Positions 4,529 to 33,515 of a DNA stretch of 64,000 nucleotides are shown piece after piece. Source of the stretch: Pseudomonadota bacterium. Its GTDB lineage: Bacteria > Desulfobacterota > Binatia > Binatales > Binataceae. The stretch lies in assembly GCA_021323945.1 (NCBI GenBank), contig JAJPKA010000002.1:354923-418922 (forward strand). Direction: 5' to 3'. Position 1 is the stretch's first letter. Each line of letters begins with the position of its first letter. The notes under the pieces are model-generated. The model ran no database searches and was not told the origin of the DNA. It worked only from the letters and a program-made list of their open reading frames with translations. Made by a program: the position numbers and the translations under genes.

Positions 4529-4536
4529 TTGGGGTT

Positions 4537-5298
4537 CTAAAGCACGAGGCGGATGGTCCAGAAATCATCGGAAAGGTTCGGGTCAGTCAAATAGGTATAT
4601 GGCATGGTGAAGTACCCAGCCATTCCCCAGTCAGTACCCCAGGAGTTGCGCACGATAAATCTCTGTTGCGCATCATCATAGCCGACCGCCAGTACTGCAT
4701 GGCCACCTATCTCCTGTTCATTCGGACCCGGCATATTCACCTGGCCAGTCTGAGCAACTTGCTGACTCTCGAAGCTTTCATATACCGAGAAACCGAAAAC
4801 GAAGGGGTAGCCGGAAGCCAGGCAGCCTTTCATCTGAATGAGATTGCGCGAGACCCGCTGGTACTGAATCACCTTGTACTTCTTAGCGTCATTGTACACT
4901 TTCTGGGGTGGTTTTTCGGCAAACTTCGCAATGTCGTAGGGCCACTCAGTTTCGGGCACGTCGCCCTGCTTTGCCACGCTTTTAATGCCATCGCGGATCA
5001 TAGCGCCGCTGTCGGTATTCACCGTGCCCTCGATGACTCGTTCGTTGTAATAGATGAACAAACGAGAGGGTACAAAATTAGGCTTGTGTTCCTTCATCCG
5101 GTCGAACTGAATCGCCCCCGCGATCGCATTTGCCGTACAACTGCCCAGCTGTCCTTGGTCATAAACCGGCGGACAAGCGGGGCGCAGGTCGACCTGAGGG
5201 GGAAGCACTCCCAGGTTGACCAAAGGCGCCGCATATAGATGGTCTCGATGGTCCGGTAGGTCCGGAATCCATCCAAAGCGTTGAATCTTGTGCCCCAT
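4537..5298 (-). CDS. Papain-family (C1A) cysteine peptidase lacking signal peptide and prodomain
   Basis: 253 aa. Catalytic Cys motif QGQLGSCTANA, His motif GGHAVLAVGYD, Asn/Trp motif NSWGTDWGMAGYF. The mature domain begins about 25 aa from the start. Confidence 0.85.
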   Translation of the reverse strand: MGHKIQRFGWIPDLPDHRDHLYAAPLVNLGVLPPQVDLRPACPPVYDQGQLGSCTANAIAGAIQFDRMKEHKPNFVPSRLFIYYNERVIEGTVNTDSGAMIRDGIKSVAKQGDVPETEWPYDIAKFAEKPPQKVYNDAKKYKVIQYQRVSRNLIQMKGCLASGYPFVFGFSVYESFESQQVAQTGQVNMPGPNEQEIGGHAVLAVGYDDAQQRFIVRNSWGTDWGMAGYFTMPYTYLTDPNLSDDFWTIRLVL

Positions 5299-27362: not shown

Positions 27363-28505
27363 GTGGCACTGCGATTTGGTGTGATCTCTGCTGACGACCA
27401 TGTGGTGGAACCGCCTGATCTGTGGACCAGTTGCCTGTCGCAGGCAAAATGGGGCGACCGCATTCCGCACGTGGCTGTGCAGTCGGACGCGACCGAGCGT
27501 TGGGTAATCGATGGCCAGGTCAGGCTGTCAACTTCGCTGGTCTCGACCGGGGCGTTATCCACAGACCGAGGTTCGGAGCCGCAGCACTGGAGTGAGGTGC
27601 CCAAGGCCGCGTACGACCCGGCGGCGCGGCTGGCCGCGATGGATTCAGACGGCGTCGATTGCTCGGTGCTATTCCCGTCAGCCGCGGGCGTGAGCGGCGA
27701 GGCGATTGGCGCAATCAAAGACCTCGAGCTTCAAGTCCAATGCGCGCGTGTCTATAACGACTGGATTATTGACGTTTGGGGCGCATCCAGTCCGCGTTTC
27801 GTGCCCCAGGCCATCCTCCCCGCAGGATCGGTTGAGGCGGCGGTGGCGGAAGCCATGCGCGCGGTGGGCCGGGGCCATAAGGGATTAATCATGCCCGCGC
27901 AGCCCTCGCAAATAAATCCAGCCGTACCTCATCTCTACAAGCCTGACTGGGATCCGCTATGGAAGACAATCGAGGAACTCGGGGTCCCCGTATGCTTCCA
28001 CGCGGGCAGCGCTCCCAGCGTTATGTTCGAGATAAGCCCGGCCTACGACTCAGCCGGGGCCCGCGCATTCGACAACGTCCGCCAGTCGGCCGGCAGTGCA
28101 GCATTGATCAATGGGATGGTGCTGTCGGGAATTCTGTACCGGTTTTCGCGACTGCAGGTTGTCTTTCCGGGTAGTGCGATTGATTATGTGCCGTTTGCGC
28201 TCGAAGCACTGGACCATCAGTGGGAACGTCAGCGTCTGGCGGAGAACGAAGGCTTCCTGCAGCGGCCCTCTGAGATTTTTCATCGACAGTGTTACGTGAC
28301 GACGTGGAAAGAAAGGGTCGGACTGCGCAATCGCAACTATGTCGGTGTGGAGCGCATCCTCTGGCAATCGGAGTTTCCCCGCTCGACGTCGACCTACCCC
28401 GAAACCACGCGCATGATCGCCAACAACTTCGCTGACGTACCTGCTCAGGAGCGCGACCTGATCCTCTGGCGCAACGCCGCTCGACTTTACCAGCTGTCAA
28501 CCTGA
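27363..28505 (+). CDS. Amidohydrolase-2 family hydrolase (tandem paralog)
   Basis: 380 aa, collinear similarity to the preceding gene (ISADDHVVEPPDLWTS...KWGDRIPHV...DSDGVDCSVLFPS...). Confidence 0.75.
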   Translation: MALRFGVISADDHVVEPPDLWTSCLSQAKWGDRIPHVAVQSDATERWVIDGQVRLSTSLVSTGALSTDRGSEPQHWSEVPKAAYDPAARLAAMDSDGVDCSVLFPSAAGVSGEAIGAIKDLELQVQCARVYNDWIIDVWGASSPRFVPQAILPAGSVEAAVAEAMRAVGRGHKGLIMPAQPSQINPAVPHLYKPDWDPLWKTIEELGVPVCFHAGSAPSVMFEISPAYDSAGARAFDNVRQSAGSAALINGMVLSGILYRFSRLQVVFPGSAIDYVPFALEALDHQWERQRLAENEGFLQRPSEIFHRQCYVTTWKERVGLRNRNYVGVERILWQSEFPRSTSTYPETTRMIANNFADVPAQERDLILWRNAARLYQLST

Positions 28506-28805
28506 AAGTCGGGCTGCAATTTAGCAGTTCCCGCGCAGCTGCCACGTGGACGGGAAACCCCGTGGGCTGCTGGAGCTGAAGTCTGCCGAGTGCAATGACG
28601 TGCTCGTGGCCGTCTCGACGCAGAACGCAAATGACGGAGACACTGATTACAGCGGATCGGAAATGCTCGAGCTTAAGGTTTCAAGAGCTGCGAATCGCAA
28701 GTCCACGCAGGCTCTGGCACCGGGACGTGCGTAAAGAGAAGAGCAGGTCGAAGGCACGGGGATAGTTGCGTCGCAAGACTGCGTTTGCTGTTAGAAGGAG
28801 AAGCC

Positions 28806-28979
28806 GTGAAGCCGATCAGCGTCACGCTGGAGAAAAGCAAAGAGACCAAGGGAACGTACCGGTTCGATTCGCCCGATCCGAACGCCGTCATCACCAGCGT
28901 GTACGTGAGAAAGAGCGCGTTCGACGACGGCGCCGTTCCAAAACGTATCGTCCTCACGGTGGCCGAGGCGGGAAGCTGA
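28806..28979 (+). CDS. Small hypothetical protein (57 aa, GTG start with AAGGAG RBS)
   Basis: AAGGAG 5 nt upstream of GTG. ORF ends 20 bp before the next gene, suggesting an operon. Confidence 0.35.
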   Translation: MKPISVTLEKSKETKGTYRFDSPDPNAVITSVYVRKSAFDDGAVPKRIVLTVAEAGS

Positions 28980-28998
28980 ATCCTAGGTACTTCCCGCG

Positions 28999-30003
28999 AT
29001 GGAGGTCAACAGGAAACAATTCAAGGTACAGGCCGGCGAGAAGTTCGCTTGTGCGGCTCTCCCAACCACCGCGCTGGAAATTTGTGATCTGCCGCCCAAC
29101 GAACCCGCTTGCTTGGGTCACAGCTGTTGGGCTTCTTCGGGCCTCCCTTTTCGGCTGAACGACCGGTGGAAACTCCAACTAGGGGAGTTTGAGGCAAATT
29201 GGCTCGAGCGAGGCAAGAAGTTCGTTTTTACCACGAAGATGCCATCGGCGGAGCCCGAGATCCTGAATGAGCAGGACACGCGTCTGCTTGAACGTTTGAA
29301 CTTACTGCTCTGGGGCATCGCTATAGTTGCGGGCGTGCCATCGATAGAGTTCGGCTCCATCCTGTCCGGTGGAAGAACCGCACAGGATGCGCTTCTACGG
29401 CGCGTGGCGCCAATCGAGTCGTTTTACCGAACTCCGGGAACTTCAATACCGTCGACCACTGTTTCGGAACTGCGCAGCGCGGCGCGATTCGTGGAGCGCT
29501 TCGAGAAGATTGTTCAACGGAGACAACGGGAACAGCGCTCGTATTGGCGACCAGTGAGTGGGCTCTACGCTTTCGTTGCTGCAATGAAGGCCCCGCAAGC
29601 GGAGATTCGACTCCACCAGTTTGTAAGGGCGATCGAGTCCTTTTTGTCGCCCTCCGTTTTTGGGGCCAAAAAATTCTGCAAGTATGCCTGCAAATTTCTG
29701 AGAGATGCTCCGCGCGCTCAGACGACTCTGCGGCAGATGTACGACTTGCGCAGTGCCGCCGAACACCACCGTCTTTTTGACACGCGCACGCTCCGTGGCA
29801 TCCAAACACCAGAAAAGGTAGCTATGCAGCGTGCGAGGCAGGCCGAGGCCTTCGCCCGCGAACTCTATCGACGGTTCTTCGCGGAGCAAGAAGATTACCT
29901 TGAGTACTTCAAAGACGACAAATCGCTCAACACCCTATGGTCTGACGCCGATAAGCTAGCGACCGTGTGGGGAGAACCTTTTGACATCGATGGGGTTGCG
30001 TAG
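28999..30003 (+). CDS. Hypothetical protein, 334 aa, with candidate Rx4H (HEPN-like) motif LRSAAEHHRLF
   Basis: Long ORF in a region of locally lower GC. No recognisable family. Rx4H motif near the C-terminal third. Confidence 0.55.
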   Translation: MEVNRKQFKVQAGEKFACAALPTTALEICDLPPNEPACLGHSCWASSGLPFRLNDRWKLQLGEFEANWLERGKKFVFTTKMPSAEPEILNEQDTRLLERLNLLLWGIAIVAGVPSIEFGSILSGGRTAQDALLRRVAPIESFYRTPGTSIPSTTVSELRSAARFVERFEKIVQRRQREQRSYWRPVSGLYAFVAAMKAPQAEIRLHQFVRAIESFLSPSVFGAKKFCKYACKFLRDAPRAQTTLRQMYDLRSAAEHHRLFDTRTLRGIQTPEKVAMQRARQAEAFARELYRRFFAEQEDYLEYFKDDKSLNTLWSDADKLATVWGEPFDIDGVA

Positions 30004-30283
30004 CTGTTGGGTGAGACATGGCACAGGCAATAACATCGCGACCGAAGCGCAATCTTGAGGCATATCAGCATATGCGCAAGGAGCGGCTGAATAACCCGCC
30101 GTCGGGCCTTGCGACGCCGAAGACGGACCCGCCGGCAAGAAGCATGAGTGCGAGGCTCCGGTCCCGTCGAAGCTGAAAAAGGTGACCCACTAAGATTCAC
30201 CTCTCGATCCGCCAGGCTACTCTCGCGAGCATCTAGGTCGCGTTGCGGCGCAAAACAGCGGCAATCAAGGTCTCGTTCGTGAA

Positions 30284-30793
30284 CTAAATCCTACTGGCCT
30301 GGGCGGTTGTCATTCTTCTCCGACAGATTGAAGTGAGAGTGAGGATTCGATTTTTATAAACAAATTCATAATGCTCACCATGCACATCGTCACACTCAAC
30401 GACCGCATGGAAGCGTGGATCGTCAAGAATCGACACGCCGGAAACGCCGCATTGAGTTGCTGCCAAGGCGTACACCTTCTCAGTCGGTCCCAAGGCGCCG
30501 AGCGCGAAAGCCTTATCTCTATCGCACACGACAAAATTCGGTGCGTCGAGCACCTTTCGAACGATATTAAGGGCTGGACCATAGCCGATGTTCTTGACGT
30601 AGACGTCACGCCAAGTGCCACCCGGGCCTAACTGCTCTTCAAACGTGAGTATGGGCATACGAGCCGCTTTCTCCCTTCTCTTCTCAAAACTGACTATACG
30701 AGCATTTATGCACGACGCGACGGCAATCACCACCGTGGCGACGGCGGTTACCGCGGCGGAGTTCTGGTTTAGAAATGCGAGCAGCCAAGCCAT
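30284..30793 (-). CDS. Hypothetical protein with single N-terminal TM anchor (169 aa)
   Basis: N-terminal hydrophobic helix (AAVTAVATVVIAVASCINA). Local GC is about 50%, against about 60% elsewhere. Confidence 0.5.
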   Translation of the reverse strand: MAWLLAFLNQNSAAVTAVATVVIAVASCINARIVSFEKRREKAARMPILTFEEQLGPGGTWRDVYVKNIGYGPALNIVRKVLDAPNFVVCDRDKAFALGALGPTEKVYALAATQCGVSGVSILDDPRFHAVVECDDVHGEHYEFVYKNRILTLTSICRRRMTTAQASRI

Positions 30794-31070
30794 AAGTTAT
30801 TTTAAATGCCGACTTATTCCGCCTCGTCAACCGGAATATCACCCCATGTGCGCTCATATGATGCGCCGCGGCTGGCGTGCGCGGCCCGAACCTGACAATG
30901 GTCTGCTGCAAACAAACCCTCGGTCATGAAGCCGAAAAAAGCTAGACCCGCATCGCAAGGGAAAGTTGGGAAGAGAAGCGAGGCAAATGTCAGGAACGCA
31001 TGCCCGTGGCGCTCGCGAATTGTCGAGCTCGCTGTGGATGTTTGGTTTCAGAGCGACGCCCCGGATGTCT

Positions 31071-31460
31071 TCAAGCGATCGCGGCGCAGCACTGGATTTC
31101 CAGCAACAGCCCCGGAATCATCAGTGCCGACACTCCAATTGTCGCGCTGGTGTAGGCGGGCGTCCGCAAGATTCGCTTGCGCGTCTCCACGTATTTTTGA
31201 CCGTTAGCGGCTAGATCCACTACGAAACTGGTCATCTGTAGGATGCGGTCGAGCCCACTTCCCGCGGCGCGCAGGATTTGCTCGATATTGCGGAAAGTCT
31301 GGATAGTCTGAGTTTCGATCTCGTCACCTACCACCTTGCCCCTGTCGTCCAGCGCGGAAATGCCCGACAAATACAACACGTCGCGGTAGCGCACGCAGTT
31401 GGTAAAGCCGAAAGGTTCGTATGCCAATACACCGGCCGGAGTTGGAACGACTTCGATCAT
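31071..31460 (-). CDS. RidA/YjgF family reactive-intermediate deaminase
   Basis: 129 aa with a YjgF/RidA-like profile (…VRYRDVLYLSGISALD…TSATIGVSAL…). Confidence 0.75.
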   Translation of the reverse strand: MIEVVPTPAGVLAYEPFGFTNCVRYRDVLYLSGISALDDRGKVVGDEIETQTIQTFRNIEQILRAAGSGLDRILQMTSFVVDLAANGQKYVETRKRILRTPAYTSATIGVSALMIPGLLLEIQCCAAIA

Positions 31461-32228: not shown

Positions 32229-33515
32229 CTAGCCCCAGTTGTTCCGGGCCCACAACACGAGGTCGATCATAGGTGATCCAGCTGCAGCGACATTATTGTC
32301 TTCGGGCCCATTCCACAAGGGAAAATCCCATTCCTGTTCCTCGGCGGAGGCGACGCCGACCAGCGACGGATAGTCCTCGCCGTCCCACCACCCGAAAAAC
32401 GGGCCGCCAGAGTCGCCGGCGGTCACATCGCCGTTGTCGGTCTCGAGCTCCATCGCAGCGCCATCTTCGTCGTCATCGTGGAAGCTGATCCCTCCTTGCC
32501 ACGAGGGCCGCTCGCCTTTAGCGATGGCGCTTGCATAACCCACGAAGCTCCAGTAGTTACCGTCGTTCCAACTGTCGTCGTAGGTCTCGCCGCCGAACCA
32601 TCCGAGGAAGTCACCCAGCGGATCGATAAGATGCAGCACCGCAAAGTCCCAAGCGGGTCGGTCCACATCGGGGGCGGGCTCCTGGTAGTAGGCCGCCGCT
32701 GCGTCGACGTAGGAGTAGACATTCGGACCCAGCGTTGAGACGCCATTGAAGTAGGCCGGCACAAACTGGATCATTCCCGGGTTTGCACCCCACGGCACCG
32801 CGTGCGAAGCTGTCAGCACGATATCGCGCGACACCAGCACGCCAGTTGCTCTCCACGACGGCACGAAACTGTACGGGTCGTTGTAAGAAAAGATTCGGCC
32901 AATGCATTGCCATGGATAGCCGGTGGGGTAAAAGGGCTGGCGTACGTCGTTGCCGAAAATATACAGCGGTCGCACACGTTTGCCGTTCACCCGCCGCATG
33001 GTTGGGCGAGGCAGACGCGCTGCCATTTTGGGATGGTAAATTATGTCGGCCCACTCGGGAATTTTGGGCGGCGGAAGCGGCAGGGTGGGTGAGCTGACCT
33101 TGAGCTCGTCCCGTTTGAGGCGCCGGGTTTCCGTGAGCGGCAGACCCCGCATCAGCTTGTGTTCGCGACAAATCTGAAAAGATCGCATGCCGTTTACACT
33201 GCTGATTTCGTGGATGATCGTGTCGGTGTTTACCGAGCCTGCTACTGTGAAGCTGTTGGCGGACTTCAGCTTATGCAGTGCGGTCGGCAAAGGTTGGTGT
33301 TTGATAATGTTCTCCAGCCTGAGGATGGCGTCCGCGCGCATCGGCGGCGGCACCTTTGTCCCCGTGTTTACCTGGGTTTTGCTCATTGCTCTTTCCTCCG
33401 ACCGTGACCAGCGGCCTCGCACTTCTTCCACTCGAAGGGGGAGCAACGCGGGTGCCATTGTCGCGCCCTTGATCTGTGGGGCTACGTGGCCAAGAGCTGA
33501 TGATCTCCATTGCAA
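32229..33515 (-). CDS. Trypsin-like (S1/chymotrypsin-fold) serine peptidase with ~200-aa N-terminal extension, no signal peptide
   Basis: Catalytic triad motifs in order: His (VLTASHAV), Asp (DFAVLHL), Ser (GDSGGPFF). The start codon is uncertain (TTG at 33515, or internal Met at residues 19 or 44). Confidence 0.75.
   Translation of the reverse strand: MQWRSSALGHVAPQIKGATMAPALLPLRVEEVRGRWSRSEERAMSKTQVNTGTKVPPPMRADAILRLENIIKHQPLPTALHKLKSANSFTVAGSVNTDTIIHEISSVNGMRSFQICREHKLMRGLPLTETRRLKRDELKVSSPTLPLPPPKIPEWADIIYHPKMAARLPRPTMRRVNGKRVRPLYIFGNDVRQPFYPTGYPWQCIGRIFSYNDPYSFVPSWRATGVLVSRDIVLTASHAVPWGANPGMIQFVPAYFNGVSTLGPNVYSYVDAAAAYYQEPAPDVDRPAWDFAVLHLIDPLGDFLGWFGGETYDDSWNDGNYWSFVGYASAIAKGERPSWQGGISFHDDDEDGAAMELETDNGDVTAGDSGGPFFGWWDGEDYPSLVGVASAEEQEWDFPLWNGPEDNNVAAAGSPMIDLVLWARNNWG

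Follow-up and report, generated by a model that had tools for sequence, protein, structure and literature searches.

Metal-independent RNase activity of the dimer is a trait of the HEPN superfamily, and controller (C) proteins of restriction-modification (RM) operons and BrxR/CapW serve as portable defence regulators. The linkage of HEPN genes to RM systems is a described pattern for which PrrC is the paradigm, and the hallmark of the superfamily is an Rx4-6H motif, commonly with a polar residue after the arginine (PMC3710099). The HepT-MntA pair is distinguished by an Rx4HxY motif and an AMPylated tyrosine (PMC7641770). These proteins, together with the RnlA/LsoA (RNase LS) anti-phage toxins, are among the closest systems to a pair of proteins, of 57 and 334 aa, encoded in the stretch of 64,000 nucleotides analysed here (the window). 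The features of the locus are as follows.

28520-28760, plus strand: all that is left of a PIN_3 (VapC-like) toxin gene, its frameshifted 3′ ~250 nt
28795-28800, plus strand: Shine-Dalgarno sequence AAGGAG of the 57-aa gene, read from the sequence, 5 nt before the GTG
28806-28979, plus strand: gene for a conserved 57-aa protein, MKPISVTLEKSKETKGTYRFDSPDPNAVITSVYVRKSAFDDGAVPKRIVLTVAEAGS, first in the operon, with a GTG start
28999-29448, plus strand: N-terminal alpha/beta domain of the 334-aa protein (residues 1-150), a putative sensor or regulatory domain
29461-30003, plus strand: C-terminal helical HEPN-type domain of the 334-aa protein (residues 155-334), a predicted RNase
29749-29766, plus strand: codons of the Rx4H motif R251-S-A-A-E-H256, with R251 and H256 invariant
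30284-30793, minus strand: gene for a 169-aa membrane-anchored protein with one TM helix, a neighbour outside the module

The reading that we favor, with a probability of roughly 0.55, is that positions 28806-30003 are a two-gene operon left from a mobile defence cassette flanked by toxin-antitoxin (TA) genes and inserted just after an Amidohydro_2 gene, and that this operon encodes a HEPN RNase effector and a generic small partner.

The first-pass annotation had described an island of three genes, lower in GC than its flanks, between metabolic genes. The flanks are indeed an Amidohydro_2 pair on one side and a RidA/L-PSP gene (31071-31460) on the other. The nearer Amidohydro_2 gene, 380 aa long, occupies 27363-28505, and 15 nt separate its stop from the PIN remnant. 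The open reading frames also lie where they had been placed (28999-30003, plus strand, 334 aa; 30284-30793, minus strand, 169 aa). Homologues form 39 clusters for the 334-aa protein, 76 for the 57-aa protein and 32 for the 169-aa protein, and by this comparison all three are judged to be real genes. None of the three proteins has a match in Pfam, NCBIfam, PHROGs or PADLOC, in keeping with the earlier remarks that the 334-aa protein carries no family signature and that the locus is matched to no known system; in PADLOC-DB v2, none of the segment's four open reading frames had a match with E ≤ 1.

The claim about base composition fared differently. The GC content of 28506-31070 is 56.2% versus a window mean of 56.8%, which places the segment at the 30th percentile among equal-sized windows, and low GC was rejected as an island marker. 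By gene, the values are 56.2% for the 334-aa gene, 59.8% for the 57-aa gene and 52.7%, rather than the ~50% first estimated, for the 169-aa gene, which is the sole low-GC gene in the segment (5th percentile, GC3 0.57). As had been noted, this gene is oppositely oriented and its product is membrane-anchored through an N-terminal hydrophobic helix, after which come the conserved motifs RMPILTF, KNxGYGPALNIVR and ECDD. The family is rare, and at loci L051-L054 its members lie among other genes without small or HEPN-like genes. In the loci examined, a 169-aa homologue was never found beside 334-aa homologues, nor do the other two genes adjoin it elsewhere. On this comparative evidence, the 169-aa gene is best regarded as an independent rare gene rather than part of the module, and the proposed three-gene layout is not upheld.

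A 52-aa basic open reading frame suggested at 30018-30176 has no counterpart in homologous loci, which share nothing past the 334-aa stop codon. The spacer after the 334-aa gene was also considered as a methyltransferase remnant, a candidate rejected because homology is absent there. Direct and inverted repeats flanking the segment amount to short, chance-like matches. The conserved unit is 28520-30003, comprising the PIN/VapC remnant, the 57-aa gene and the 334-aa gene, and the genuine operon consists of the 57-aa and 334-aa genes only, two of the three genes first grouped together.

The structure model of the 334-aa protein is confident (pLDDT 92.6, pTM 0.91), and in it the C-terminal half is predicted to be an all-alpha helical bundle resembling solved HEPN domains. 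The string LRSAAEHHR, which had been singled out as a HEPN catalytic motif, occupies residues 250-258, and R251 and H256 are invariant both in 26 close relatives and in 58 diverse relatives of 20-40% identity, which have six invariant columns in all. Because of this invariance, the Rx4H motif is more than a chance occurrence. Residue 252 is S or N across relatives, as in active HEPN families. Model and alignments together show that the protein is built of two domains and that a predicted HEPN fold with an invariant Rx4H motif makes up its C-terminal half, in agreement with the initial HEPN-type assignment, and the protein probably cuts RNA.

At E ≤ 1e-3 the family numbers 1,298 representative clusters (clustered at 50% identity), and the best-scoring 150 of these match over almost the full length. 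Pfam searches with the 26 and 58 family members gave a few weak matches (E 1e-4 to 0.24), none of them to HEPN, and a sequence-profile search of the PDB returned chance-level matches only. The Foldseek check recommended in the first-pass annotation was carried out with the 334-aa model against PDB and BFVD, and nothing emerged with E < 0.2. Profile alignment with hhalign gave a probability of 0.2 against single ApeA and PF05168-HEPN sequences, and no signal against a 237-aa Binatus neighbour.

In several respects the protein resembles the RM-linked HEPN RNases, such as PrrC, which accompanies the PrrI type I system, ApeA, and DUF3644/EC042_2821 (PMC3710099). It likewise has a conserved Rx4-6H motif, the genes of its relatives likewise lie within type I and type III RM operons or are attached to them, and a second-line defence role is likewise predicted. 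However, it shows no sequence relationship to the PrrC, ApeA or DUF3644 families, its N-terminal domain differs from those of PrrC and ApeA in having neither an ABC ATPase nor an ApeA_NTD, and no RM system adjoins its gene in the window. The protein also differs from HepT. HepT is about 130 aa long, whereas the 334-aa protein has an extra N-terminal domain, no PF01934 match, and a motif (RSAAEHHR) with no Y at H+2. Furthermore, its partner in the window is a 57-aa non-MNT protein with no NTP_transf_2 match.

Genes of this family have been located both within RM operons and within defence islands. One closes a single-strand HsdM...HsdS-DUF3644...HsdR operon at its 3′ end (L062), another has an RHH-PIN pair on one side and a type III Mod/MNT-HEPN/ResIII block on the other, in an element that also carries a primase-polymerase gene (L011), and a third lies between SIR2_2, ApeA-HEPN and HsdR-SLFN genes (L055). 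A conjugative plasmid of Bradyrhizobium carries a member beside HEPN/Toprim-associated, AbiV and CBASS genes. No copy was found in viral contigs. Near the module, the window holds no RM or other defence genes, and the adjoining genes are metabolic, as they are at family loci L056 and L060. An Amidohydro_2 gene also adjoins a Binatus homologue (L010); at 34% identity it is not an orthologue of the gene in the window, and that locus is therefore uninformative on synteny.

Horizontal acquisition had been proposed at the outset, and the left end of the unit speaks for it. Positions 28520-28760 are collinear, at 71-73% nucleotide identity, with L011 positions 4535-4780, where a gene assigned to Pfam PIN_3 has its 3′ part. 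The open reading frame at 28546-28734 aligns by BLASTP with the L011 PIN protein (39% identity, 44 aa, E 5e-6), and homology is lost 5′ of about 28520. This truncated remnant marks the left edge of the presumably acquired block. A deviant base composition, which might be expected of a genomic island, is not seen in the segment. Two other signs of an island were found: its border carries an addiction-module remnant, and the block recurs elsewhere in unrelated surroundings, the pair of 57-aa and 334-aa-type genes being present in three different neighbourhoods (the window, L011 and L062). The module does look horizontally acquired, given that the PIN remnant aligns collinearly with part of an RHH-PIN/type III RM element of another genome; the presence of relatives on a conjugative plasmid as well as in RM operons and defence islands is consistent with this view.

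The 57-aa gene has the ribosome-binding site ascribed to it, and GGAGG-type sites are found at an equal distance from the start codon in other small-gene loci. Each of the 16 loci compared uses GTG or TTG as the start codon. The 76 clusters of homologues are 68-98% identical, 71% of the nucleotide differences fall at third codon positions, and codon differences are synonymous-only in 769 cases versus non-synonymous in 351. This pattern indicates a protein-coding gene under strong purifying selection. Constraint at the nucleotide level, such as that of an RNA element, was considered and rejected, third positions being free to vary. Truncated copies of the small gene are frequent elsewhere.

The genes directly downstream of the small gene, as assigned with Pfam and PADLOC, encode HsdM, type III Mod, SIR2, an SNF2/DpdE-like helicase, HEPN proteins and PD-(D/E)XK nucleases, among others, and at least eight unrelated gene types are preceded by it in tight linkage, at spacings of -4 to about 27 nt. 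Copies with the same partner are no closer to each other than copies with different partners. The small gene is an unusual element because the same gene heads many unrelated defence operons. In the window, the spacer between the 57-aa and 334-aa genes measures 19 nt, on the same strand and without a terminator-like site, and a sigma-70 promoter scan found no plus-strand site upstream of the small gene.

Like C proteins and BrxR/CapW, the 57-aa protein is small and its gene heads RM and other defence operons of unrelated systems. In contrast to those regulators, it has no helix-turn-helix, WYL domain or family match, and its sequence looks strand-rich. The structure model is poor (pLDDT 64) and unfit for structure search; because no usable model is available, the role of the protein is a guess from genomic context. 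Plasmids gave zero matches, and viral matches comprise one phage and one IMG/VR sequence, with distant copies in phages. A literature search for the protein's motif or comparable operon leaders found nothing.

Perhaps the operon works as follows. Two copies of the 334-aa protein would pair, as in other HEPN effectors, so that a single RNase site, independent of metal, is built from their Rx4H motifs. The N-terminal domain peculiar to the family might keep the enzyme inactive until infection or RM failure is signalled, and RNA cleavage would then halt growth of the infected cell in an abortive-infection or second-line defence response like that of PrrC or ApeA. The 57-aa protein would be a generic partner rather than a dedicated antitoxin, because a nearly unchanged protein precedes methyltransferase, SIR2, helicase and nuclease genes. 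Most likely it would control whether the gene that follows is expressed or armed, acting through a nucleic acid or through a shared factor of host or phage origin. A tentative variant makes this protein, which has no recognizable DNA-binding fold, a new portable leader of defence operons that gates the expression or activation of any effector that follows, with the 334-aa HEPN protein as one interchangeable cargo; such a leader might bind, for example, the leader RNA with GGAGG that these operons share, or else some factor common to phages or hosts.

The idea of a TA cassette, also raised in the first-pass annotation, has been weakened because the small protein heads many unrelated operons. 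In a classical type II arrangement, the 57-aa protein would bind and neutralize a HEPN toxin, and its degradation would free the RNase. What stands is a tight, co-oriented small gene 19 nt upstream of the presumed toxin gene and the recurrence of this pairing at L005/L062 and L011. What does not stand is specificity for the toxin family, since the small proteins are 80-87% identical between loci whose HEPN partners share only 36-52%, and the same protein precedes the non-toxic HsdM and type III Mod. Among ten family loci, moreover, the upstream partner is the small gene in three and another gene in two, is lacking in tight linkage in at least four, and is cut off by a contig end in one. The two different genes are a 237-aa open reading frame and, at L007, an MNT gene, a known antitoxin type for HepT toxins. 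This last case was downgraded as proof of HepT-like pairing after DNA comparison, because the L007 MNT is 88% identical to that of the L015 MNT-HepT pair and homology ends at the stop codon; the adjacency is probably a deletion product. Overall, we consider the type II reading doubtful.

It is also rather improbable that the operon is a functionless relic of an eroded RM/TA element kept by drift, or that its HEPN-like protein has a non-defence role in RNA processing. The truncated, frameshifted PIN gene, the absence here of the methyltransferase and restriction genes found next in L011, the metabolic neighbours and the commonness of truncated small-gene copies would all suit decay. However, both open reading frames are intact, the small gene retains its full length and Shine-Dalgarno sequence, and every conserved residue is kept, including those of Rx4H. 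Several data sources moreover contain the identical locus, on 24 contigs or more, all recovered contigs being of the same species. We give still less credence to a helical domain that shares no more than its shape with HEPN and, like non-catalytic HEPN domains, serves to bind a protein or ligand, with R251 and H256 conserved for binding and no cleavage of RNA. Both residues are invariant and S or N follows the arginine, as in active families, whereas the conserved R or H is missing from the non-catalytic families, Parep1/8 and AbiV among them (PMC3710099, Table 1).

If the favored reading of an effector operon with a generic small partner is correct, the restriction-linked HEPN effectors would gain a family of ~1,300 clusters for which Pfam, NCBIfam, PHROGs and PADLOC v2 have no annotation, and its new N-terminal domain could point to a new trigger. 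In addition, a tiny and extremely conserved protein would appear to accompany many different immune genes. The taxonomic range observed is narrow, chiefly soil Binatia and ‘Deltaproteobacteria’ MAGs, which limits generality. To our knowledge, few portable regulators are common to unrelated defence systems. Such regulators reveal how cells restrain toxic immunity genes, and one of 57 residues, with no known fold, would lend itself to simple tests.

The first-pass annotation proposed a three-gene island between metabolic genes, and the ORF list and the sequence itself bear out the genes:

28806-28979, + strand: small gene with a GTG start, encoding 57 aa (ORF list and sequence reading)
5 nt before that GTG, + strand: Shine-Dalgarno sequence AAGGAG (sequence reading)
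28999-30003, + strand: HEPN-like gene encoding 334 aa, after a 19-nt spacer
30284-30793, convergent to the other two: gene for a 169-aa protein with an N-terminal hydrophobic helix

Pfam matches confirm that the segment is flanked by two Amidohydro_2 genes and a RidA/L-PSP gene. The 57-, 334- and 169-aa proteins and a proposed 52-aa ORF (30018-30176) have no matches in Pfam, PADLOC, NCBIfam or PHROGs, in agreement with the annotated lack of a known system. The lower GC content ascribed to the island does not hold up: positions 28506-31070 have 56.2% GC versus 56.8% for the window (30th percentile among equal-length windows), and the dip is confined to the 169-aa gene (52.7%, 5th percentile). 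The segment has no noteworthy flanking repeats or terminators. Elsewhere in the window, a 428-aa ORF (32229-33515) has a weak match to trypsin-like peptidases (E 1.5e-4); metagenome annotations call it as 385 aa, without a Pfam family.

The family of the 169-aa protein is rare (32 clusters) but well conserved, with a TM helix and the motifs RMPILTF, KNxGYGPALNIVR and ECDD. Homologues at four other loci (L051-L054) occur in other contexts that lack the small and HEPN-like genes; one (L051) is near DUF433 and DUF3368/UPF0175 TA-type genes. The 169-aa gene is an independent accessory gene, and the module comprises two genes rather than three. Likewise, the 52-aa ORF gains no support from related loci, which share nothing with the window past the 334-aa stop.

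The origin of the module can be read from its upstream edge. The Amidohydro_2 gene stops at 28505. Immediately beyond it, positions 28520-28760 are collinear with the 3′-terminal ~250 nt of the PIN_3 gene of L011, a locus with type III RM genes, and are 71-73% identical to them. Both loci share the order PIN_3 3′ part, spacer, small gene. The RHH-PIN pair is intact in L011, whereas the PIN_3/VapC toxin gene in the window is a remnant with a truncated and frameshifted frame. Beyond the stop codon of the 334-aa gene, the window shares no homology with L005, L011, L015 or L018. Because the PIN remnant is collinear upstream and homology is absent past this stop, the shared block is 28520-30003. 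Judged by these alignments, the window module looks like an L011-type cassette minus its 5′ TA genes and whatever came after. The PIN remnant and this collinearity uphold the proposed horizontal acquisition.

A word-indexed search found 39 relatives of the 334-aa protein, and an exhaustive profile search with its family reached 1,298 clusters (50% identity) at E ≤ 1e-3, 454 of them at E ≤ 1e-30. The 150 best-scoring clusters listed align across almost their whole length; most of these proteins have ~320-340 aa. Invariant residues in 26 close relatives include R184, H206, Q207, E213, R251, E255, H256 and R292. Among 58 diverse members (20-40% identity), only six columns are invariant, two of them R251 and H256, which substantiates the Rx4H motif of the first-pass annotation. 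The position following R251 is S or N, as it is in active HEPN families (PMC3710099). An AlphaFold2 model built from the family alignment is confident (pLDDT 92.6, pTM 0.91) and shows two domains, one alpha/beta (residues 1-150) and one helical (155 onward). Structural evidence is limited, with moderate scores (≤ 6.8), and Foldseek of the model against PDB and BFVD gave no match. Sequence and profile comparisons tie the family to no described HEPN family. Given the model, the Rx4H motif and the absence of a known-family link, we treat the protein as the representative of a divergent, newly recognised HEPN family whose N-terminal domain is its own. A HEPN fold is likely, and we infer RNase activity as a prediction. 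Separately, a 237-aa protein encoded upstream of the HEPN-like gene in Candidatus Binatus (L008-L010, 4266-4979) contains RDKAAFH (Rx5H) and may be a second HEPN-like protein.

The names attached to relatives (Candidatus Binatus, Binataceae, 'Deltaproteobacteria' MAGs) point to a soil bacterium of Binatia type as the probable source of the window. We read ten distinct neighbourhoods. In L062/L005, the small and HEPN-like genes are the last two of a one-strand operon ordered HsdM, DUF4258/MqsA-like TA, HsdS, DUF3644, DUF6978, DUF1828/9, HsdR. This long type I RM operon spans L062 1-10208 (GCA_041643075.1), with embedded TA, DUF3644, DUF6978 and DUF1828/1829 genes; DUF3644 is itself a HEPN family. 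In L011-13, the two genes have an RHH-PIN pair on one side and, on the other, a type III methyltransferase gene followed by MNT-HEPN and ResIII genes; the element also encodes a primase-polymerase. The HEPN-like gene also lies amid SIR2_2, ApeA-HEPN and HsdR-SLFN genes (L055), adjoins HEPN/Toprim-associated, AbiV and CBASS genes on a Bradyrhizobium conjugative plasmid, precedes Metallophos and AAA_15/23 genes (L008-10), and adjoins a terminase gene (L061). Its neighbours are metabolic in L007, L056, L060 and the window, and IMG/VR yielded no copies. Such a distribution is typical of an accessory gene with frequent links to defence, and it agrees with the known attachment of HEPN genes to RM systems (PMC3710099).

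The small protein is the most conserved element of the module (76 clusters, 68-98% identity), with HEPN-like partners at the same loci just 36-52% identical. Third codon positions take 934 of the 1,313 pairwise nucleotide differences, and 769 codon differences are synonymous-only versus 351 non-synonymous; by this pattern the gene is protein-coding. Because third positions vary freely along the whole gene, what is constrained is the protein rather than any RNA or DNA element. At all 16 loci compared (L005, L011, L014-L016, L019, L021-L024, L026, L028, L029, L031, L034 and the window at 28806), the start is GTG or TTG, never ATG, after a strong GGAGG-type site, which suggests selection for low or regulated initiation. 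The small protein's AlphaFold model is poor (pLDDT 64), and a search of its distant members for family matches found none.

Between the window (28776-28880) and L011 (4796-4900), the ribosome-binding site and first 25 codons share ~90% DNA identity, falling to 68-73% on either side, a mosaic that suggests recombination within the small gene. Many copies are truncated or frameshifted (L017, L018, L033, L035/L036, L037/L039, L044). Since several of these share a metagenome or MAG with intact copies, individual genomes seem to have several copies at different stages of decay.

Among loci retrieved with the small protein, what follows its gene, at a distance of -4 to ~27 nt, varies widely. By Pfam and PADLOC, these downstream genes encode the HEPN-like family, type III Mod, type I HsdM, an SNF2/DpdE/ZorD-like helicase, a SIR2_2 protein, a PD-(D/E)XK Cas4-like nuclease and an APH-like protein; several belong to families without identification. 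L011, L015 and L018 have the same type III Mod gene downstream, separated from the small gene by the HEPN-like gene, by a 261-aa gene or by no gene at all, and by this comparison the slot is optional. Similarity among copies does not follow partner type: those that share one are no closer to each other than those with different partners. Just upstream there are often TA genes (RHH-PIN, MNT-HepT or a divergent RHH gene).

One recurrent downstream family (127-216 aa, N-terminus like MLKKIEDLFRCADAENDKMGAEEYL) occurs at three or more distinct loci (L024/L025 351-734; L031/L032 6208-6858; L035/L036) and matches nothing in Pfam or PADLOC. The cultured Shewanella phage S0112 has an unannotated 49-aa ORF that is distantly related to the small protein, at 49% identity:

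L057 5001-5150 (MK675901.1 24713-24862): phage small-gene relative, among hypothetical early-region genes

One IMG/VR contig has a distant copy ahead of a SLOG-family gene. On a viral and a phage-like contig, proteins with YAcAr/SLOG-type N-terminal domains follow distant relatives (L059 4965-5527; L045 6001-8898, assigned to SLOG solely by visual likeness of its N-terminus), a class distinct from the defence-gene partners.

In the best-supported reading, the 334-aa protein is a predicted HEPN RNase effector kept off by its own N-terminal domain; an infection-related signal would free it and bring about growth arrest, with the 57-aa protein acting as a generic regulator or partner. A classical TA pair, in which the 57-aa protein is the dedicated antitoxin of a HEPN toxin, fits poorly, because the small protein also partners non-toxic genes and at least four loci of the HEPN-like family lack it. 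The sole relative with an adjacent MNT gene (L007) offers this alternative little: its MNT has 88% DNA identity to that of L015, part of an MNT-HepT pair upstream of the small gene, and homology stops at the MNT stop codon, so the adjacency may be a deletion product. The module may by now be a functionless relic, but both ORFs are intact with each conserved residue kept, and several data sources contain the identical locus, on at least 24 contigs in all.

Thus, of the horizontally acquired defence or TA cassette first proposed, the acquired HEPN-type module stands, and the simple TA pair, the third gene and the GC signature do not. The gated effector, with the small protein as its generic regulator or partner, remains our preferred reading of this two-gene module, and of its two products the small leader protein most merits experiment.
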